Shown: in pieces, positions 54,547 through 64,000 of the stretch
How positions within the stretch are numbered: the first letter of the stretch is position 1
Layout of the letters: each line of letters opens with the position of its first letter
From: Sphingopyxis sp.
GTDB taxonomy: Bacteria; Pseudomonadota; Alphaproteobacteria; Sphingomonadales; Sphingomonadaceae
Direction of reading: 5' to 3'
Assembly: GCF_051861155.1 (NCBI RefSeq)
Contig: NZ_JBHYDE010000007.1
Span: 152,596-216,595 of the forward strand
Length of the DNA stretch: 64,000 nucleotides
Position numbers and translations under genes: made by a program
The notes under the pieces: model-generated
What the model was told of the DNA's origin: nothing
Seen by the model: only the letters and a program-made list of their open reading frames with translations
Database searches by the model: none

Positions 54547-56388
54547 ATGACTGATCTCCACCCCACCATCGCTACCGTCACCGACCGCATCATCGCTCGC
54601 AGCGCCCCGCGCCGCGCCGCCTACCTTGGACTGATGGACCGCCAGCGCGAGGCGGGCACCAACCGCGGCAACCTGTCGTGCGGCAACTTGGCGCACGGCT
54701 TCGCCGCGGCGGGCGACGACAAGGCGGTGATCCGCACCGGCGGCGCGATGAACATCGGCATCGTCACCAGCTACAACGACATGCTCTCGGCGCATCAGCC
54801 CTATGGCCGCTACCCCGAACAGATCAAATTGTTCGCGCGCGAAGTCGCCGCGACCGCACAGGTCGCGGGCGGCGTTCCCGCGATGTGCGACGGGGTGACG
54901 CAGGGGCAGGCGGGCATGGACCTGTCGTTGTTCAGCCGCGACAATATCGCGCAGGGCACCGTGATCGCATTGAGCCACGCGATGTTCGAGGGCGCGTTGC
55001 TGCTCGGCATCTGCGACAAGATCGTCCCCGGCCTCTTGATTGGTGCGCTGCGTTTCGGTCACCTGCCGCAGATATTGATCCCCGCGGGGCCGATGCCCTC
55101 GGGCCTCGCGAACAAGGAAAAGCAGCGCATCCGCCAGCTCTATGCCGAGGGCAAGGCGAGCCGCGACGAACTGCTCGAGGCCGAAGCGGCGAGCTATCAC
55201 GGCGCGGGCACCTGCACCTTTTATGGCACCGCGAACTCGAACCAGATGATGATGGAGCTGATGGGGCTGCACGTCCCCGGCAGCGCCTTCACCAACCCCG
55301 GCACGAAATTGCGCCAGGAACTGACCCGCGCCGCGACGCACCGGGTGGCCGAAATCGGCTGGGACGGCAGTGATTATCGCCCGCTGGCGCGCTGCGTCGA
55401 CGAGAAAGCGATCGTCAACGCCGCGATCGGGCTGCTCGCGACCGGCGGCTCGACCAACCATGCGATCCACCTGCCCGCCATCGCGCGCGCCGCGGGGATC
55501 ATCATCGACTGGCAGGATTTCGACGAGCTCAGCCATGCGGTGCCGCTGCTCGCGCGCGTCTATCCGAACGGCGCGGGCGATGTGAACAATTTCCACGCCG
55601 CGGGCGGCATTGGCTATGTCGTGCGCGAGTTGCTCGATGCCGGGTTGCTGCACGGCGATGTGCTGACCGTCGGCGGAACGATGGCCGATTATGGCAATGA
55701 ACCGGTGCTGGCCGGTGATGCCCTGCAATGGCAGGCCGCCCCTGCGACCAGCCGCGACGACACGATGCTGCGCCCTGTCGCCGCGCCCTTCTCGCCCGAC
55801 GGCGGCATGCGCCTGCTCGCGGGCAATCTCGGCCGCGCGATCATCAAGACCAGTGCGGTGGCCGAGGATCGCTGGACGATCGAGGCGCCGTGCCGGATCT
55901 TCGACAATCAGGATGCGGTGCTGGCGGCGTTCAAGGCGGGCGAACTCGAACAGGACGTCATCGTCGTCGTGCGGTTCCAGGGGCCGCGTGCCAACGGCAT
56001 GCCCGAACTCCACAAACTGACCCCCGCGCTCGGCGTCTTGCAGGACCGCGGCTTCCGCGTCGCGCTGCTCACCGACGGCCGCATGTCGGGCGCCAGCGGC
56101 AAGGTGCCCGCGGTCATCCATCTGTCGCCCGAAGCCTTGCCGGGCCCTGACGGGGTCAGCGGCCCGCTCGCCTTCCTCGCCGATGGCGACATCGTTCGCG
56201 TCTGCGCGCGCCAGGGCGAGGTGCTGGCACTCGTCGATCCCGCGATCTGGGCCGCGCGCTCGCCCGCTGCCGCCCCGCCGCCCGCGCTCGGCGTCGGCCG
56301 CGAACTTTTCGCCTTGTTCCGCCACCACGCCGACGAAGCCGAAAAGGGTGGGTCGGCGGTGCTCGCGGCGATGGAAACGGTAATCTAG
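54547..56388 (+). CDS. edd: 6-phosphogluconate dehydratase
   Basis: [48 protein letters not shown] and [10 protein letters not shown]. Confidence 0.98.
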
Positions 56389-56389
56389 C

Positions 56390-56469
56390 TCGTCGCCCCC
56401 GCGAAGGCGGGGGCCGCTGGCGACCTTGCGCAACTCTGATAGCGGCCCCCGCCTTCGCGGGGGCGACGA
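56390..56469. repeat. CGTC-tagged REP dimer, family 1, copy 3 (between edd and eda)
   Basis: 29-bp arms at 56390-56418 and 56441-56469. Confidence 0.9.
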
Positions 56470-56479
56470 AGGAATAAAA

Positions 56480-57100
56480 ATGACCGACAATAGCATCGAC
56501 CAGATCATGCGCCTTGCCCCCGTCATCCCGGTGATCGTCATCGACCGGGTCGAACACGCGGTGCCGATGGCCGAGGCGCTCGTCGCGGGTGGGCTGACCG
56601 TCCTCGAAGTCACCCTGCGGACCCCCGCCGGGCTCGACGCCATCGCCGCGATGAAAGCGGTCAAGGGCGCGGTCGTCGGCGCGGGCACCGTGCTCGATCC
56701 CGCGATGCTGGCCGCCGCGATCCACGCGGGGGCCGAGTTCATCGTCTCGCCGGGCCTCACCGACAATCTCGGCAAAGCCGCCGTCGCCAGCGGCATTCCG
56801 TTCCTGCCCGGCACCGCCAACGCCGGTGACATCATGCGCGGCATGGACCTCGGCCTCGACCGCTTCAAATTCTTCCCCGCGGCGACCAGCGGCGGCATCC
56901 CGGCGCTCAAGGCGCTCGCCGGACCCTTCGGTCAGGCGCGCTTTTGCCCGACCGGCGGCATCAGCCTCGCGACCGCGCCCGACTGGCTCGCGCTCGAAGC
57001 CGTGCTGTGCGTCGGCGGCAGCTGGGTTGTCCCGTCGGGGCCGCTCGACCCGGCGCGGATCGAGACGCTCGCGCGCGAGGCTGCAGCACTGGCGTCCTGA
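56480..57100 (+). CDS. eda: KDPG/KHG aldolase
   Basis: EVTLRT, VGAGTV, FIVSPG, KFFPA and CPTGG; start trimmed to ATG 56480. Confidence 0.97.
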   Translation: MTDNSIDQIMRLAPVIPVIVIDRVEHAVPMAEALVAGGLTVLEVTLRTPAGLDAIAAMKAVKGAVVGAGTVLDPAMLAAAIHAGAEFIVSPGLTDNLGKAAVASGIPFLPGTANAGDIMRGMDLGLDRFKFFPAATSGGIPALKALAGPFGQARFCPTGGISLATAPDWLALEAVLCVGGSWVVPSGPLDPARIETLAREAAALAS

Positions 57101-57205: not shown

Positions 57206-58816
57206 ATGCGCGTGCCAAGACCGCAGCCGCATTTGGAAGAAGTGCTCGCGTCCGAACCCGGATCGCATATCGCCGCTTTGTTCGATTTCGACGGCACGAT
57301 CATCTCGGGCTACTCCGCCACCGCAATGCTGCGTGAGAAATTCCAGCGCCGCGAAATGTCGATGGAGGAAATCGCCGAAACCGCGCAGGTCATCGCGCAG
57401 CACAGTCTGGGCACCATCGGCTTTTCGGGGCTGATGTCGGGCGCCGCCAAATTCATGAAGGGCGTCGACGAGGAAAGCTTCATCGAGTTCGGCGAAGAAC
57501 TCTACAAAAAGCATATCGCGCGCAAAATCTATCCCGAAACCCGCGCGATCATCGAAGCGCATCAGGCGAAGGGCCACCGCGTCGCGATCATCTCGTCGGC
57601 AACGATCTATCAGATCGAACCGACCGCGCGCGACCTCGGCATCACCGACATCAAATGCTCGGCCTATGAGATCGAGGATGGGGTGTTCACCGGCGAGATC
57701 ATCCGCCCGCTGTGCTTCGGCGAGGGCAAGGTGCTCGCCGCCGAGGAACTCGCCGCCGAATATGACCTCGATTTGGGTCAAAGCTTTTTCTATTCGGACA
57801 GCGACGACGACATCGAACTGCTCGAACGCGTCGGCAAGCCGCGCCCGCTCAACCCGAATTTGAAACTGAAAGCCATCGCTGAAGAAAATGGCTGGCCGGT
57901 CCAGCGTTTCGGCAGCCGCGGCACGCCGTCGTGGGTCGACTACACGCGCACCATCTACGCGACGGGCTCGCTCGTCGGCGCGTTCGCCGCGGGGCTGCCG
58001 ATCTGGGCGCTGACGCGTTCGCAGCGTGAGGCCGCCAATTTCTCGATCGGGCTGTTCGGCGATTTCGCGACCGCGATCACCGGGGTCGAATTGGAGGTCG
58101 AGGACGAGAAGAATCTCTGGTCCTCGCGCCCCTGCGTCTTCATCTTCAACCATCAGAGCAAGGCGGACGTGATGATCCTCGCCAAGCTCATCCGCCGCGA
58201 CATGGGCGGGGTGGGCAAAAAAGAGATCAAGGACATCCCCATCCTCGGCAAGCTGATGGAATGGGGCGGGACCGTCTTCGTCGACCGCGCCGACGGCAAG
58301 AGCGCGATCAAGGCGATGGAGCCGCTGGTCGATGCCATCAAGGTCGAGGGCAAGTCGATCTGCATCTCGCCCGAGGGCACGCGCAGCCTGACGCCCAAGC
58401 TGGAGCCGTTCAAGAAGGGCGCCTTCCACCTCGCGATGCAGGCCGGGGTGCCGATCGTCCCGATCGTGATTCACAATGCGACCGACGTCGCGCCGAAGAA
58501 TGAATTCGTGATGCGCCCGGCGACGGTTCGGGTGACCGTGCTGCCGCCGGTCGACACGTCGGGGTGGACGCCGAAGACAATCAACAATCATGTCCGCGAC
58601 GTCCGCAACATGTTCCTGCAGACGCTGGGGCAGCCGGAGGAAAGCGCGGCAGAATCGGTGGCCAAGGAACCGGCGCCCGAACAAGCGGCGCCCGTGAAGG
58701 CTGAAAAGGCCAAACCGAAAAAGGCGGCGGTGAAGAAACCGGCGGCCAAGAAAAAGGCGCCGACGACAAAAGCGGCTACCAAGAAACCTTCCCCGCGAAA
58801 GGGAAGGGCCACCTAA
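57206..58816 (+). CDS. HAD-IB phosphatase / 1-acyl-glycerol-3-phosphate acyltransferase (PlsC) fusion
   Basis: N-terminal FDFDGT (HAD motif I), ISSAT, CFGEGK and YSDSDDD; C-terminal NHQSKAD (HxxxxD) and PEGTRS; Lys-rich tail. Confidence 0.9.
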   Translation: MRVPRPQPHLEEVLASEPGSHIAALFDFDGTIISGYSATAMLREKFQRREMSMEEIAETAQVIAQHSLGTIGFSGLMSGAAKFMKGVDEESFIEFGEELYKKHIARKIYPETRAIIEAHQAKGHRVAIISSATIYQIEPTARDLGITDIKCSAYEIEDGVFTGEIIRPLCFGEGKVLAAEELAAEYDLDLGQSFFYSDSDDDIELLERVGKPRPLNPNLKLKAIAEENGWPVQRFGSRGTPSWVDYTRTIYATGSLVGAFAAGLPIWALTRSQREAANFSIGLFGDFATAITGVELEVEDEKNLWSSRPCVFIFNHQSKADVMILAKLIRRDMGGVGKKEIKDIPILGKLMEWGGTVFVDRADGKSAIKAMEPLVDAIKVEGKSICISPEGTRSLTPKLEPFKKGAFHLAMQAGVPIVPIVIHNATDVAPKNEFVMRPATVRVTVLPPVDTSGWTPKTINNHVRDVRNMFLQTLGQPEESAAESVAKEPAPEQAAPVKAEKAKPKKAAVKKPAAKKKAPTTKAATKKPSPRKGRAT

Positions 58817-58832
58817 GCCATGACATTTTCCC

Positions 58833-58922
58833 CCGCTCGCCCTGAGCTTGTCGAAGGGCCGTTCTTCCTTTCAGACGGTGCAAAGGAAAAGAACGGCCCT
58901 TCGACAAGCTCAGGGCGAGCGG
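58833..58922. repeat. Palindromic repeat, family 2, copy 2
   Basis: 34-bp perfect inverted repeat at 58833-58866 and 58889-58922. Confidence 0.9.
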
Positions 58923-58979
58923 ACATGGGGGCTCGTGAAGGTCGTCATGGATGCGCCCCATTGACGGAGTGGGCGTAGA

Positions 58980-61319
58980 ATGGCCGACGGATCGCCCCGT
59001 ACCCCCATCGCGACGGAGGACGCGGCTGACCGGCTCTATATCATCGACGCGCGCAACGGGGTGGAGCGTCAGCTGCTGCTCGACTGGGTCCATGCCACGG
59101 CTGGTGACGATGACCCCCAATGGGCCAGCCTCGCGATCGAGGACGATGATCATGCGCTGCCGCTCGACATGCTGCGCGCGCGGCTGGGTGGGCTGCCGTC
59201 GCGGCAGGTGGTGCCGCTGCGCGTCGCGTGGCGCATTCCGGGGTTCGAGCGCGATCGCGCGCTCAAATTCCGCCACATCCTGTTCGGCGACCCGCGCCAT
59301 CCCGGCTCGCTGCGCGCGCGGCTGATCCTGCTGCGCGATCGGCGCCGGGCGCAGATATTGGTCGGCGAGGCAGCAACGCTCGACGCATTGCGCGACCGTT
59401 TCGCGGCCCAGACCGGCGGCGGCGACGCGGTTGGCGCCGACAGCGCCGAGTTTGCGGGTTTTGTCGCGCGGCAGGCGGGGCTGGCGCTCGACGTCGCCGA
59501 ACGCGGCATCCGCGGCACCCGCTACAAGGTGCCGCGCTTCGTCGCCGATGGCCTGCGCACCAGCCCCAAATTCCGCGCCGCACTCGCCGAATTGTCCGAG
59601 GCGACGGGCCGCCCGGTCGCCGACCTTTTCCGCGAAGCACGGCCGTTGATGAAAGAGGTCATCGCGCGGCCCAGCGCGCTGTTCCTCGACCTGCGCGCCC
59701 GGCTCGACCGCATGATGTTCGGTGGCTATGCGCCCGAGATGGAGGTCGACGCCGCCGAGCTGGCAAGGCTGCGCGCGATCCTGCGCGAGCATCCGACCGC
59801 GATCCTGTTCACCCACAAGACCTATATCGACGGCGCGACGCCCAGCCGCCTGACCTATGAGAATGACATGCCGATGCTGCACAGCTTCGGCGGCGCCAAT
59901 CTTGACTTCGCGATCATGGGCGAATTTTTCCGCCGCTCGGGCATGATCTTCATCCGCCGCAGCTTTCAGGACCAGCCGGTCTACAAGCTCGTGCTGCGCC
60001 ATTATATCGCCTGGCTGCTCGCCAAGCGTTTCCCTTTGAGCTGGGCGTTCGAGGGCACCCGGTCGCGGCTCGGCAAGCTGATGCCGCCCAAATATGGGCT
60101 GATGAAATATGTCCTCGACGCGGCGCATGCGACGGGGACGCGCGGGGTGCATTTCGTCCCCTTCGTGACCAGTTTCGACCTGATCCGCGATGTCGAGGAA
60201 TATGCCGCCGAACAGACCGGGCGCAACAAAAAGCCCGAGAGCCTGTCATGGTTCCTCGGCTATATGAAAAGCCTGAAGGAACCCTCGGGCCGCATCCGGC
60301 TCGACATCGGCAATCCCGTCGTGATCGACGAGGCGCCGGGCCCCGACGACAAGCGCGCGCTCGAGCGGATCGCCTTTGCGGTTGCGGTCGAGGCGAACCG
60401 CGTCACCCCGCTCACCGTCACCTCGGTGATGTGCCTGACCCTGCTCGGCATGGCGCCGCGCGGGGCGACCGCCGCCGAACTGCTCGGTGCGATCGGCGCG
60501 GTGAGCGACTGGGCGCGGGCGCGCGATATCCGGCTCAGCAGCGAACTCGCCAGCGGCGATCGCGCCGCACTTGCGGTGACGGTCGATACGCTGGTCGAAA
60601 GCGGGCTGCTGACGCGCTATGAAGCGGGCAGTGAGCGCGTCTATTCGATCGACCCCGCCAAGCATCCGATGGCGAGCTATTATCGCAACATCATCGCGCA
60701 TCATTTCCTCGACCGTGCGATGATCGAACTGGCGCTGTTCGAACTCCGCGATGCCGACAGCGGCGACGCGACCGCCGCCTTCTGGGCAAAGATCGATCGC
60801 CTGCGCGATCTGTTCAAATTCGAATTTTTCTATCCGCCGCGCGACGAGCATCGCGCCGCGATCGAGGCCGAACTCGCACGCATCGATCCGGTGTGGGACC
60901 GCCGCCTCGCCAGCGGCGACCGCGGCATCGCGCAGTTGCTGCGCCGCTGCCAGCCGGTCGTCGGGCACGCCATCTTGCTGCCGTTCACCGAGGCGTATTC
61001 GGTCGTCGCTGATCTGCTTGCGCGCGCCAAGCCGGGCGACGTTGTCGATGAAAAGGCGCTGGAGAATGCGGCGCTTACCGAGGGCAAACAGGCCTATCTG
61101 CTCCGCCGGATCAGCAGCGAGGCGGCGATCGGCAAGCTGTTGTTCGCCAACGGGCTGTCGCTGATGCGCCATATGGGGCTCGCCGAGGAAGCGACGCCAG
61201 CGAACCTCGCCGCGCGCCGTGCACTGCTGATGGAACTGCGCGGCCTCGCCAACGTCATGGAAACGATGCGGCTTTCGACGGTGGCACTGGCCGACCGGTT
61301 GCCGGGGTCGGGAGAGTGA
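58980..61319 (+). CDS. PlsB-type glycerol-3-phosphate acyltransferase (actinobacterial PlsB2-like architecture)
   Basis: HKTYID (HxxxxD), SFGGANL, IFIRRSF and FEGTRSRLGKL; 779 aa with an extra N-terminal domain. Confidence 0.88.
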   Translation: MADGSPRTPIATEDAADRLYIIDARNGVERQLLLDWVHATAGDDDPQWASLAIEDDDHALPLDMLRARLGGLPSRQVVPLRVAWRIPGFERDRALKFRHILFGDPRHPGSLRARLILLRDRRRAQILVGEAATLDALRDRFAAQTGGGDAVGADSAEFAGFVARQAGLALDVAERGIRGTRYKVPRFVADGLRTSPKFRAALAELSEATGRPVADLFREARPLMKEVIARPSALFLDLRARLDRMMFGGYAPEMEVDAAELARLRAILREHPTAILFTHKTYIDGATPSRLTYENDMPMLHSFGGANLDFAIMGEFFRRSGMIFIRRSFQDQPVYKLVLRHYIAWLLAKRFPLSWAFEGTRSRLGKLMPPKYGLMKYVLDAAHATGTRGVHFVPFVTSFDLIRDVEEYAAEQTGRNKKPESLSWFLGYMKSLKEPSGRIRLDIGNPVVIDEAPGPDDKRALERIAFAVAVEANRVTPLTVTSVMCLTLLGMAPRGATAAELLGAIGAVSDWARARDIRLSSELASGDRAALAVTVDTLVESGLLTRYEAGSERVYSIDPAKHPMASYYRNIIAHHFLDRAMIELALFELRDADSGDATAAFWAKIDRLRDLFKFEFFYPPRDEHRAAIEAELARIDPVWDRRLASGDRGIAQLLRRCQPVVGHAILLPFTEAYSVVADLLARAKPGDVVDEKALENAALTEGKQAYLLRRISSEAAIGKLLFANGLSLMRHMGLAEEATPANLAARRALLMELRGLANVMETMRLSTVALADRLPGSGE

Positions 61320-61338
61320 CTTTGGCATTTTTCAACTT

Positions 61339-61424
61339 CGTCATTGCGAGCGAAGCGAAGCAATCCAGAGCGAGTTTACGCCCACTCTGGATTGCCGCGT
61401 CGCCTTCGGCTCCTCGCAATGACG
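61339..61424. repeat. CGTC-tagged palindromic repeat, family 4
   Basis: CGTCATTGCGAGCGAAGCGAAGCAATCCAGAG ... CTCTGGATTGCCGCGTCGCCTTCGGCTCCTCGCAATGACG. Confidence 0.88.
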
Positions 61425-61442
61425 GCCGATTAGGAGGATAGG

Positions 61443-62996
61443 ATGCTCAAACAGCTCAGCGCGCAGGACGCCCAGTTCCTCTATACGCAGACCGCGAACA
61501 ATCTGACGCATATCATGGGTGTCTATATCTATGACCCCTCGACCGCGCCCGGCGGCTTCGTGCGGTTCAAGGATATCATCCGCCACGTCGAAAGCCGCGT
61601 CGACACATCGCCGCTTTTCAAGCGCCGCCTCCACCGCCTGCCGTTCGACATGGACCATCCCTATTGGGTGGAGGACGAGCATTTCGACATCGAGGCGCAT
61701 ATGAGCCACGCGCGGCTGCCCGAACCCGGCGACTGGCGGCAATTCTGCATCGCGGTGGCGCGCTATTTCTCGAAGCCGATGGATATGAACCGTCCGCTGT
61801 GGGACATTTATATCATCGAGGGGCTCGACCGGATTCCGGGCATCCCCAAGGGCAGCTTTGCGATGCTGCACCGCGTCCACCACGCAGCGGTCGACGGCGC
61901 GTCGGGCGCGCATGCCTTTATCGCGATGAGCGATATCGACGCGCAGGGCACCCCGGCGATCGCCGAACCGCCGCCGATCGAAGCGCTGGGTCAGGCACCC
62001 ACGAGCAGCGAAACCCTTTCGCGCGCCTGGTCGGCGTCGATGCAGTCGCCGGTCAAGTTCATGAACGCGCTGATGAAGATGTCGCCCGCGATCATCTCGT
62101 CGGCGCGCAAGGCGATCGAGGGCGGGATGACCGCTGGGGTCCCCGAAACGCGCTTCAACGTCCCCGTCGGCCCGCACAAGATGTTCGACGGCACGTCGGT
62201 CGCGCTCGCCGACGTGGCGGCGGTGCGCAAGAAGGTTCCAGGCGCGACGGTCAACGACGTCGTGCTGACCACGGTTGGCGGCGCGCTGCGCAAATATCTC
62301 GCGAAGCACAAGGAATTGCCGAAGGACAGCCTGGTCGCGGTCGCGCCGGTCAATTTGCGCGGCAAAGGGGGCAAGGCGAGCACGCCGGGTAACCAGGTGT
62401 CGGCGATGAGCGTGCCGATCCGCACCGACATCGCCGACCCGCTCGCGCGGCTTGCGGCGGTTCGCGATTATACGGTCGAGGCCAAGGAAGCGAAGGCGGG
62501 GGTCAGCGCGCGGATCATGACCGACCTGTCGCAGCATATTCCGGGCGCGACGATGGCGGCGGTCGCGCGGCTCGTGACCAGCGAGCGCTTTGCGGTGCGC
62601 GGCACCAACCTGTTCATCTCGAACGTGCCGGGCGCGCAGGTGCCGCTCTATCTGGCGGGCGCGCAGCTCGTCACGCAACATGGGATGGCGCCGCTCGCGA
62701 ACAATATGGGGCTGTTCGTTGCGACCCCCAGCTATAATGGCCGGATCGCCTTTTCGCTGATCTCCGAACGCGCGGTGATGCCCGACATCGCCTTTTTCCG
62801 GACCTGTATCGAGGAAAGTTTCGCTGAACTGATGACGGCGGTGCCCAAGCCCGAGAAAGCCAAAGCCGCTACGGCAACGCCGAAAACGGCAGCAAAGCCG
62901 AAGCCGAAACCGAAGGCCGTCCCAAAACCTGCCGCCAAGCCCAAGGTGAAACCGGTTGCCAAAAACAACGCAACCGGCAAGACTCGCAAAAAATAA
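61443..62996 (+). CDS. Wax ester synthase / diacylglycerol acyltransferase (WS/DGAT)
   Basis: LSAQDAQFLY, PLWDIYIIEGL, catalytic HHAAVDG, TVNDVVL, GNQVS and SNVPG; Lys/Pro/Ala tail. Confidence 0.95.
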   Translation: MLKQLSAQDAQFLYTQTANNLTHIMGVYIYDPSTAPGGFVRFKDIIRHVESRVDTSPLFKRRLHRLPFDMDHPYWVEDEHFDIEAHMSHARLPEPGDWRQFCIAVARYFSKPMDMNRPLWDIYIIEGLDRIPGIPKGSFAMLHRVHHAAVDGASGAHAFIAMSDIDAQGTPAIAEPPPIEALGQAPTSSETLSRAWSASMQSPVKFMNALMKMSPAIISSARKAIEGGMTAGVPETRFNVPVGPHKMFDGTSVALADVAAVRKKVPGATVNDVVLTTVGGALRKYLAKHKELPKDSLVAVAPVNLRGKGGKASTPGNQVSAMSVPIRTDIADPLARLAAVRDYTVEAKEAKAGVSARIMTDLSQHIPGATMAAVARLVTSERFAVRGTNLFISNVPGAQVPLYLAGAQLVTQHGMAPLANNMGLFVATPSYNGRIAFSLISERAVMPDIAFFRTCIEESFAELMTAVPKPEKAKAATATPKTAAKPKPKPKAVPKPAAKPKVKPVAKNNATGKTRKK

Positions 62997-63019: not shown

Positions 63020-64000
63020 ATGCTTTTCACCCCGACGCTCAGCGCCGACCGCGATCTCGTGACCGCGACCGATTACATCGCCTGGGCCAAGGCGGCGCGC
63101 GAACATGACCGGAAATCGGGCCTCCAGGCGTGGCGCGACGCCGACGAAAGCAGGTATTTCGATTATAAGGCCATTCGGGCAAGGCTCGAAAAGCTGCGCA
63201 AGCTGTCGGCGGCGGGCGACGTCAAGGGGCTGCTGTTCGTTCTGAACGAAGGCATCCACGGCAATATCGACGGCATGGGGCACGAGCGGCTGTATCAAAA
63301 GGCGCGTTTCGGCACGAAAAAGCTGATCGAGGATTATGTCGCCGAGGTCGTCGCCTCGCTGGACAAGATCGCGGCGTCGCGCGGCATCGGCCGCGAGGAA
63401 AAGCGCGATTTCTTCCGCCGCGCCCAGCATTGCTACGGCCGGTCGGCGCTGCTGCTGTCGGGCTCGGGCAGCTTCCTCTTTTTCCATATCGGCGTCGTGA
63501 AGGCTTTGTGGGAAGAGGGCGTGTTGCCCGCGATCATGTCGGGTGCCAGCGGCGGGTCGATCGTCGCCGCCGTTGTTTGCACGCGCAAGAACAGCGATAT
63601 CGGTGCCTTTCTCGCAAGCGATCGTCTGGCAAACCCGGCGCGTGATCCCGAACAGAAAAGATTGGCGCCCGACGAGGTCCGCGACCGGCTGGCCGAGCTG
63701 ATCCCCGACTTGACGTTTCAGGAGGCCTATGAGGTCAGCGGCCGGCACCTCAACGTCTCGGTCGCGCCTGCCGAAAAGCATCAGAACGGGCGGCTGCTCA
63801 ATGCGATCACCGCGCCGAACGTGCTGATCCGCGAAGCGGTGCTGGCGTCGTGCGCGGTCCCCGGCGTGTTCCCGCCGGTGATGCTGATGGCGCGCAACGA
63901 CAAGGGCGACCGGGTGCCGTACCAGCCCGACCGCCGCTGGGTCGATGGATCGGTGACGCACGATATTCCGACCAAGCGCCTCGAACGGCTTTATGGGGTC
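63020..64000 (+). CDS. DUF3336 + patatin lipase (SDP1/Tgl-like), truncated at the window end
   Basis: Read by hand, not in the ORF track: MLFTPTLSADRDLVTATDYIAWAKAAREHD..., GRSALLLSGSGSFLFFHIGVVKAL, SGASGG (GxSxG), SCAVPGVF and WVDGSV. Confidence 0.88.
   Translation, partial: MLFTPTLSADRDLVTATDYIAWAKAAREHDRKSGLQAWRDADESRYFDYKAIRARLEKLRKLSAAGDVKGLLFVLNEGIHGNIDGMGHERLYQKARFGTKKLIEDYVAEVVASLDKIAASRGIGREEKRDFFRRAQHCYGRSALLLSGSGSFLFFHIGVVKALWEEGVLPAIMSGASGGSIVAAVVCTRKNSDIGAFLASDRLANPARDPEQKRLAPDEVRDRLAELIPDLTFQEAYEVSGRHLNVSVAPAEKHQNGRLLNAITAPNVLIREAVLASCAVPGVFPPVMLMARNDKGDRVPYQPDRRWVDGSVTHDIPTKRLERLYGV

Follow-up and report, generated by a model that had tools for sequence, protein, structure and literature searches.

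Lysine-rich C-terminal tails on two enzymes of a neutral-lipid operon of Sphingopyxis: composition, distribution and a possible link to nucleoid DNA

The window considered here, i.e., the whole stretch of 64,000 nucleotides (64 kb) of Sphingopyxis sp. that was analysed, contains three successive genes of neutral-lipid synthesis. The first and the third, which encode a HAD-PlsC fusion and a WS/DGAT (wax ester synthase/diacylglycerol acyltransferase), end in lysine-rich tails, and these two tails are the subject of the present analysis. The main features, in window positions, are the following.

57206..58816, + strand: HAD-PlsC fusion gene, 536 amino acids (aa), from the open reading frame (ORF) and Pfam/NCBIfam matches
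58634..58813, + strand: C-terminal tail of HAD-PlsC, aa 477-536
58980..61319, + strand: PlsB-type glycerol-3-phosphate acyltransferase (GPAT), 779 aa, from NF002886 and Pfam GPAT_C and Acyltransferase
61443..62996, + strand: WS/DGAT gene, 517 aa, from Pfam and TIGR02946
62838..62993, + strand: C-terminal tail of WS/DGAT, aa 466-517

HAD-PlsC matches Pfam HAD (PF12710) and Acyltransferase (PF01553), as well as TIGR01490 (158.6 bits) and TIGR00530 (114.1 bits). Its HAD-IB phosphatase-like domain (aa 23-232) carries DFDGT as motif I, i.e., the DxDxT of HAD-IB, and its AGPAT acyltransferase domain (aa 293-476) carries NHQSKAD and PEGTR, i.e., the HX4D and PEGTR of LPLAT. The three motifs are invariant or nearly so in the family alignment. 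A two-helix hydrophobic segment (aa 243-292; helices 243-270 and 273-292 in the AlphaFold2 model) lies between both domains, and we take these two long helices to be the membrane-embedded two-helix motif of PlsC. By these motifs, and with GPAT and WS/DGAT adjoining, the protein is assigned to the HAD-AGPAT «PlsC-like» fusions of Kennedy-pathway operons, with a predicted phosphatidate phosphatase activity.

The tail of HAD-PlsC starts with a short acidic linker, PEESAAESVAKEPAPEQ, followed from about nucleotide 58694 by a basic stretch of Lys, Ala and Pro that ends in SPRKGRAT. The C-terminal end, KAEKAKPKKAAVKKPAAKKKAPTTKAATKKPSPRKGRAT, has 14 Lys within 39 aa, and the net charge of the tail is about +9, acidic linker included. 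In the AlphaFold2 model, residues 484-536 have a predicted local distance difference test score (pLDDT) <50 and no secondary structure. PlsC of T. maritima (PDB 5kym) covers residues 280-466 of HAD-PlsC, the tail being beyond.

WS/DGAT scores 183.6 bits against PF03007, 102.9 bits against PF06974 and 397.9 bits against TIGR02946 (cut-off 310). Its catalytic (WS_DGAT_cat) and C-terminal (WS_DGAT_C) domains span aa 1-465, and the active-site motif is present as HHAAVDG, with H146, H147 and D151 invariant in the family alignment. On the presence of both Pfam domains and of HHxxxDG, the protein is assigned to the WS/DGAT family. The C-terminal end, PKPEKAKAATATPKTAAKPKPKPKAVPKPAAKPKVKPVAKNNATGKTRKK, has 16 Lys within 50 aa; counted over 55 aa, the tail contains 16 Lys, 12 Ala and 10 Pro, with (K-P)n and AKPK repeats and, at its end, the motif KPVAK(G/N)NATGKTRKK conserved in the genus, and its net charge is about +15. 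The AlphaFold2 model (mean pLDDT 85) has its final helix at 449-465; from about residue 470 onwards the pLDDT drops to about 50 or less, and the tail has a pLDDT of about 36-53, without secondary structure. The WS/DGATs of PDB entries 6chj (455 aa) and 7nxg (463 aa) align to residues 5-463 and 9-476, respectively; since the solved proteins end where the tail begins, the tail is not part of the catalytic fold. No tail is present on the other WS/DGAT paralog of this genome (C7:31697-33088), which is encoded beyond the window and ends in ...EEAAGINGK. GPAT, encoded between the two tailed enzymes (NCBIfam NF002886, 942.7 bits, cut-off 721), ends in ...ADRLPGSGE, without basic tail.

Both tails are thus modelled as disordered polycationic extensions of 40-60 residues outside the catalytic folds. 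Re-reading of the ORFs gives exactly the tail sequences and Lys counts of the initial annotation, whose identification of the two enzymes is also backed by the domain matches of Pfam and NCBIfam. Two further statements of that annotation are confirmed, namely that the biosynthetic enzymes themselves bear the tails and that these are H1-like in composition, i.e., AKPK/KPK repeats, about 30% Lys together with Ala and Pro, and a SPRK turn.

Conservation in orthologs had been proposed as a check of the idea. The tails are not absent from close relatives, since each of the two enzymes has one in 30/30 orthologs of the genus taken from whole genomes: 8-16 Lys each for HAD-PlsC, and about 49-67 aa with 11-19 Lys for WS/DGAT. 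The WS/DGAT tail is found as well in 17/17 Sphingopyxis loci of GenBank. Within the tails a motif is conserved in Sphingopyxis, KPVAKGNATGKTRKK, and most WS/DGAT orthologs of the genus finish in KPVAK(G/A)NATGK(T/N)xKK. The conserved end motifs were searched for elsewhere in the genome and occur only in HAD-PlsC and WS/DGAT. An artefact of sequencing or of reading frame was considered for the tails and is ruled out, because in most of 30 independent genomes the frame continues uninterrupted up to the conserved motif at the C-terminus. A HAD-PlsC ortholog of another genus (69% identity) has a tail of 90 aa with 19 Lys, and homologs at 37-40% identity have none.

Two kinds of variants were observed among the WS/DGAT tails. 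In one Sphingopyxis ortholog (L022, G003:C9:670195-671715) an in-frame repeat element (…GPRLRGGD…) is located inside the tail, with the end motif kept downstream; in four others (L020, L025, L026 and L028) the C-terminus is replaced by …GKKKxSSSSRT. The tail region hence tolerates insertion and replacement of its end while remaining basic.

The frequency of such segments was determined in all six frames of the genome (3.65 Mb, 65% G+C), a segment being retained when a window of 30 aa contained K≥8 and K+A+P≥21. Nine ORFs pass this test, HAD-PlsC and WS/DGAT among them. The seven others are TopA, L21, trigger factor, a RluC-type pseudouridine synthase, DciA, a Phasin_2 protein and AtpD (TopA and AtpD were assigned by eye), and the first five of these are associated with nucleic acids or ribosomes. 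Two of the nine segments are thus 4 kb apart within one operon. When the criterion is relaxed to K≥8 with a net charge of ≥+7 over 30 aa, 28 ORFs are retained genome-wide, many of them ribosomal proteins. In the window only HAD-PlsC and WS/DGAT pass even a weak test; CtpA, to which the initial annotation ascribed a short tail, fails it. One caution of that annotation is therefore not upheld: with 9 ORFs in 3.65 Mb, such tails are not «fairly common in Sphingomonads» as far as this genome is concerned. The idea of a common sphingomonad decoration is rejected by this census.

Two of the other K/A/P-rich proteins deserve a description. The Phasin_2 protein (contig C4, minus strand, offset 167244 of the reverse complement) has a K/A/P-rich region of about 75 aa on the N-terminal side of its phasin domain, i.e., a layout like that of PhaF with the order inverted; by this analogy it is a candidate tether between polyhydroxybutyrate (PHB) granules and nucleoid in the same organism. 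The beta subunit of ATP synthase (C1, + strand, ORF start about 154330) has an N-terminal K/A/P extension of about 40 aa, APAPEKKAPAKKAAAPKAAAPKKAAAPKAA.

The distribution beyond the genus was established on two samples. The first is made of the best 150 representatives of WS/DGAT clusters at 50% identity, of which 140 have an alignable domain end; Arenicella and Woeseiaceae are among the named cluster members. At least 20 extra C-terminal residues are present in 90/140 representatives, and in 70 of these the net charge is ≥+6; the extreme case has 65 Lys in 279 aa. The second sample consists of 80 named genomic loci from Sphingopyxis, Parasphingorhabdus, Sphingorhabdus, Kordiimonadaceae, genome bins of Lysobacterales/Xanthomonadales, Halieaceae, Woeseiaceae, Porticoccaceae, Steroidobacteraceae, Parvibaculum and others. 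In this survey a basic tail means at least 18 aa with a net charge of at least +6, and the counts by identity class (≥80%, i.e., Sphingopyxis; 55-80%; <55%; total) are as follows.

WS/DGAT with basic tail: 17/17; 14/17; 30/44; total 61/78
HAD-PlsC with basic tail: 16/17; 10/19; 2/2; total 28/38
GPAT with basic tail: 0/16; 0/8; 0/17; total 0/41

By a strict K-rich test, 38/78 WS/DGAT and 26/38 HAD-PlsC still qualify, together with only 8 other ORFs in the approximately 1.1 Mb of flanks of the 80 loci. By these counts the tails are concentrated on two genes, WS/DGAT and HAD-PlsC. Among the 37 operons in which both genes are complete, 25 have both tails, 6 have that of WS/DGAT only, 3 have that of HAD-PlsC only and 3 have neither; the presence of one or more tails per operon, examined as a possible rule, is thus not universal. 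The single-tail operons include complementary cases. In L095 and L097, from metagenome-assembled genomes (MAGs) of Xanthomonadales/Lysobacterales, the tails of HAD-PlsC are very long and reach net charges of +40 and +32, and WS/DGAT is tail-less; in L118 and L119 (Woeseiaceae MAGs) and L107 (a MAG of unclassified Gammaproteobacteria), WS/DGAT bears a tail of net charge +10 to +27 and HAD-PlsC is tail-less. The pattern opposing L095/L097 to Woeseiaceae fits a job shared across the pathway, and suggests that the two tails may be interchangeable and that one tail per pathway can suffice.

The tails cannot be aligned between clades; they are rich in Lys in some and in Arg in others, and positive throughout. 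Such a drift of the sequence with the charge kept is what marks a disordered region in which selection acts on charge and composition, not on sequence. The Lys/Ala/Pro type described in the initial annotation consequently holds in Sphingopyxis, and more widely has to be replaced by a general K- or R-rich polybasic C-terminal tail. On these comparisons, this polybasic tail recurs, among Alpha- and Gammaproteobacteria, in a large subfamily of WS/DGAT and in its HAD-PlsC partners, and is not specific to Sphingopyxis.

Another motif inside the tails is conserved in Parasphingorhabdus and relatives, DGSVMYRRVSKTPRK. In the WS/DGAT tails of L083-L085, L087, L089, L093 and P0121 it reads (D/N)GS(V/I/N)(M)YRRV(S/A)K(T/K)PR(K/R), with an aromatic/hydrophobic core. 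This Parasphingorhabdus-type motif may serve to dock one particular partner.

A FastTree phylogeny was computed from 207 catalytic domains, 122 of them tail-bearing, after removal of the tails. The tail trait requires at least 43 changes on this tree, vs. 66 on average, and never fewer than 55, when the labels were shuffled 200 times; it is thus phylogenetically structured, yet often gained or lost.

These data bear on the simplest explanation, according to which the tails are neutral low-complexity extensions, either functionless or acting as general solubility aids. The poor conservation of the sequence between clades, the gains and losses on the family tree (at least 43), the ortholog that tolerates an in-frame repeat and the several replaced C-termini would agree with it. 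On the contrary, charge and length are held across the examined Sphingopyxis orthologs despite the turnover of the sequence, the distribution is gene-specific (0/41 for GPAT, 8 other ORFs in the flanks), and the trait is structured on the tree (43 changes against a shuffled mean of 66 and minimum of 55). Moreover, K-rich segments are rare at 65% G+C, where Lys codons run counter to the compositional bias. Since the pattern is gene-specific and recurrent, a neutral extension is very improbable.

The other features of the locus are the following.

54547-56388: edd, upstream of HAD-PlsC
56426-57100: eda, between edd and HAD-PlsC
58830..58925, no strand: REP-like (repetitive extragenic palindromic) element, 96 bp, read from the sequence
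63020..64000, + strand: DUF3336-patatin lipase, from Pfam matches, cut by the end of the window

HAD-PlsC, GPAT and WS/DGAT form a Kennedy-pathway triacylglycerol operon, an arrangement already in the literature: the AGPAT-HAD/GPAT/WS-DGAT cluster is described in Actinomycetota, Alpha- and Gammaproteobacteria, including Parasphingorhabdus, Arenicella and Woeseiaceae (PMC10351704), and the same paper cites the operon atf9-plsB-plsC-like of R. jostii RHA1. The gene order recurs here in the Sphingopyxis loci and in loci from several other orders. The HAD-PlsC fusion was found in 4/112 genera of Sphingomonadaceae sampled and in 35/41 Sphingopyxis genomes, so that by this sampling the operon is rare within the family.

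The patatin lipase is complete in the genome (483 aa, C7:215615-217066) and ends in ...TAALKKAVR, without basic tail. Downstream of it, past the window (C7:217113-220177), two alpha/beta hydrolases and then GpsA are encoded; one of the hydrolases has a ...HEIYNEPEQ... motif and is, by eye, lysophospholipase- or monoacylglycerol-lipase-like. By its predicted gene content, the locus is a complete neutral-lipid island, i.e., synthesis plus mobilisation.

The spacer between HAD-PlsC and GPAT (163 bp) is mostly filled by the REP-like element, which is a near-perfect palindrome of 96 bp. The 21-nt core of its arm is present 4 times in the genome, i.e., in two elements. Inside the operon it could act as a stabiliser or attenuator of the mRNA. 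A hairpin of 11 pairs with a TTTTT run behind it (61300-61327) resembles a terminator and overlaps the stop codon of GPAT, just ahead of the 123-bp spacer between GPAT and WS/DGAT; WS/DGAT and the lipase may thus be a separately controlled transcription unit.

From their composition and distribution, the most likely role of the tails is to bind a polyanion electrostatically and in a non-specific manner. As to which polyanion, we tentatively favour nucleoid DNA, with rather less than even confidence, the tails holding droplets, or the enzymes that synthesise them, on the chromosome. The catalytic domains of HAD-PlsC and WS/DGAT would sit on the surface of the membrane or droplet, from which the H1-like tail would reach out and bind DNA. 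Through this contact the chromosome would retain nascent droplets, or the enzymes that make them, and the droplets would be spread and partitioned; a protection of the DNA is possible as well. The tether would then be built into the enzymes in these Proteobacteria, for a job done elsewhere by a separate protein (MLDS, PhaM or PhaF).

Five arguments lead to DNA being favoured: (i) the composition of the Sphingopyxis tails is truly H1-like; (ii) similar segments of the genome are mainly found on proteins associated with DNA or ribosomes and on the PhaF-like phasin; (iii) both enzymes have other routes to membrane or droplet, i.e., the two-helix segment of HAD-PlsC and, for WS/DGAT, the existence of characterised tail-less members; (iv) GPAT, which works at the same membrane, is never tailed (0/41); (v) there are precedents in MLDS, PhaM/PhaF and Ppk1 of Caulobacter. 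Concerning the third argument, tail-less WS/DGATs associate with membranes and droplets, and the two-helix segment leaves HAD-PlsC no obvious need of a tail for reaching the membrane.

The main alternative to DNA, equally precedented, is that the tails bind anionic lipid (phosphatidylglycerol, cardiolipin or phosphatidate) of the inner membrane or of the droplet monolayer; the enzymes would then be concentrated at the sites of lipid synthesis, or the droplets stabilised and sized. This alternative is rated somewhat less probable than DNA. In HBHA, which is of the TadA/MLDS family, the Lys-rich C-terminal repeats bind phosphatidylinositol (PI) and phosphatidylinositol bisphosphate (PIP2) and are required for the formation of lipid inclusions (PMC6176652). 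HAD-PlsC and WS/DGAT both act on membrane-bound lipids, and the substrates of HAD-PlsC (lysophosphatidate, phosphatidate) are anionic. Lipin, a eukaryotic HAD-type phosphatidate phosphatase, has a polybasic motif that binds phosphatidate, which is counted in favour of a lipid target, and the generic K/R-rich tails outside Sphingopyxis suit plain electrostatics. On the other hand, several of the features already listed count against a lipid target: GPAT has no tail at the same membrane, HAD-PlsC has its own hydrophobic segment, the WS/DGATs 6chj and 7nxg function tail-less, and in both censuses no other membrane-lipid enzyme of the genome has a K-rich segment. In addition, the tails are long (40-140 aa), of moderate charge density, rich in Pro and Ala and without aromatic or hydrophobic residues, a profile nearer to that of nucleic-acid-binding disordered regions than to that of short membrane-targeting polybasic motifs.

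Less probable still, and on the whole unlikely, is a target of another sort, i.e., a different polyanion or an acidic partner (polyphosphate granules, RNA or ribosomes, acyl carrier protein), or a docking of a specific protein by the motifs of the tails. The H1-like protein AlgP is reported to associate with polyphosphate granules (PMC9239181), and the basic tail of Ppk1 does so too (PMC3806658). L21, trigger factor and the RluC-type synthase are ribosome-associated K/A/P proteins of the present genome. Nevertheless, the operon and its flanks show no link to polyphosphate or RNA. PlsB-type GPATs can also use acyl-ACP, yet the GPAT of this operon is tail-less. A specific partner would agree with the conserved end motifs, unique in the genome and located inside otherwise fast-evolving tails; however, these motifs differ from clade to clade.

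Several points weigh against a tether to nucleoid DNA. The case for it is compositional and comparative, drawn from sequences. Three of the 37 complete operons are tail-less, and a compensating K-rich ORF searched for in their neighbourhood was not found. With at least 43 changes on the tree the trait is labile, thus accessory and not essential. Outside Sphingopyxis many tails are rich in Lys, Arg, Ser and Thr and not H1-like, and such a generic charge suits the binding of lipid equally well. The clade-specific motifs inside the tails are a hint of a specific partner rather than of bulk DNA. Nothing evident connects the K/A/P extension of AtpD, sole case of its kind, with nucleic acids or granules. 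Finally, neutral-lipid droplets are not reported for Sphingopyxis in the literature, and a preprint mentions reports of polyhydroxyalkanoate (PHA) accumulation in the genus and none for wax esters; PMC10351704 cites inclusions of triacylglycerol in Sphingomonas sp. EGY1.

The positioning, sizing and inheritance of lipid droplets in Gram-negative bacteria are barely known, and the sole worked-out link between droplets and DNA, that of MLDS, is actinobacterial. As a more general and rather speculative proposal, in many triacylglycerol-storing Gram-negatives the tailed WS/DGAT and the AGPAT-phosphatase fusion would themselves be the droplet-chromosome tether, their tails nucleating droplets and keeping them at the nucleoid without an adaptor of the MLDS or PhaM type. 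Tethers carried by the enzymes would be relevant to the engineering of oil-producing strains. Since the solved WS/DGATs (6chj and 7nxg) are tail-less, a widespread natural accessory, possibly controlling the number and localisation of droplets, has been overlooked. If anionic lipid is the target instead, the tails would be the bacterial counterpart of the polybasic membrane targeting of eukaryotic lipid enzymes.

The known systems closest to these tails are of four kinds. The first, MLDS/TadA of Rhodococcus and HBHA of mycobacteria, shares with the present enzymes a Lys/Ala/Pro-rich C-terminal tail on a protein of triacylglycerol droplets. The PAKKA C-terminus of MLDS binds DNA non-specifically and brings it to the droplets (PMC5504291). 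These proteins are structural, apolipoprotein-like and actinobacterial, whereas here the tails are fused to two proteobacterial biosynthetic enzymes; as proteins of the HBHA/TadA/MLDS type are reported from Actinobacteria only (PMC6176652), a built-in tether in Proteobacteria would fill a gap. The exact PAKKA motif is absent from both tails of the window.

The second kind comprises PhaM of Cupriavidus necator and PhaF of Pseudomonas putida, which have a histone-like K/A/P domain on a carbon-storage system. Through these domains PhaM and PhaF keep PHB granules attached to the nucleoid; PhaM also forms a complex with the synthase PhaC and activates it, by which the synthesising enzyme becomes tied to DNA (PMC13052382). 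Both are adaptors or phasins of polyester granules, linked to the enzyme in a non-covalent manner, whereas in the present case enzyme and tail are one protein, with neutral lipid as the product. Both enzymes of the window have the Lys/Ala/Pro-rich, H1-like and predicted disordered domain of such tethers; they have neither a phasin or MLDS/TadA body nor exact PAKKA/AAKP repeats, their bodies being enzymes. The isolated tails have no meaningful Pfam match even at E≤10, so that no family membership can be claimed. By analogy, the tails may resemble the histone-like domains of PhaF, PhaM, MLDS and AlgP in their proposed working, not in family membership.

The third is the C-terminal domain of linker histone H1, with about 30% Lys together with Ala and Pro, AKPK/KPK repeats, a SPRK-type turn and intrinsic disorder. 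The globular winged-helix domain of H1 (Pfam Linker_histone) was not found in Pfam scans of the whole proteins, which gave enzyme domains only. As judged from the sequences, the likeness to H1 is thus compositional only, and the tails are homologous neither to H1 nor to PhaF or MLDS.

The fourth is Ppk1 of Caulobacter crescentus, an alphaproteobacterial enzyme of a storage granule with a basic C-terminal extension absent from the E. coli ortholog. Both the localisation of Ppk1 to the granule and a normal production of granules depend on this tail of 22 residues (PMC3806658). In the same manner, the basic extension of the present WS/DGAT is missing from the solved WS/DGATs and from the paralog of the same genome. 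The likely target of the Ppk1 tail differs, being the polyanionic product of the enzyme itself; triacylglycerol is uncharged, thus the target here must be something other than the product.

As to the Kennedy-pathway WS/DGAT operons, the likeness concerns the AGPAT-HAD fusion, GPAT and WS/DGAT, at times with lipase and GpsA (PMC10351704). That paper is silent on basic tails: «lysine» occurs 0 times, and the sole match of «C-terminal» refers to the SCP-2 domain. A search of the open-access literature gave no paper linking WS/DGAT with lysine-rich, polybasic or disordered C-terminal tails. The operon is known, and the comparative pattern of the tails is new as far as the literature was searched. 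Under either target, DNA or anionic lipid, a tail carried by roughly half the members of a large WS/DGAT subfamily and by most of the partner HAD-PlsC, and never by GPAT, is a concrete new observation.

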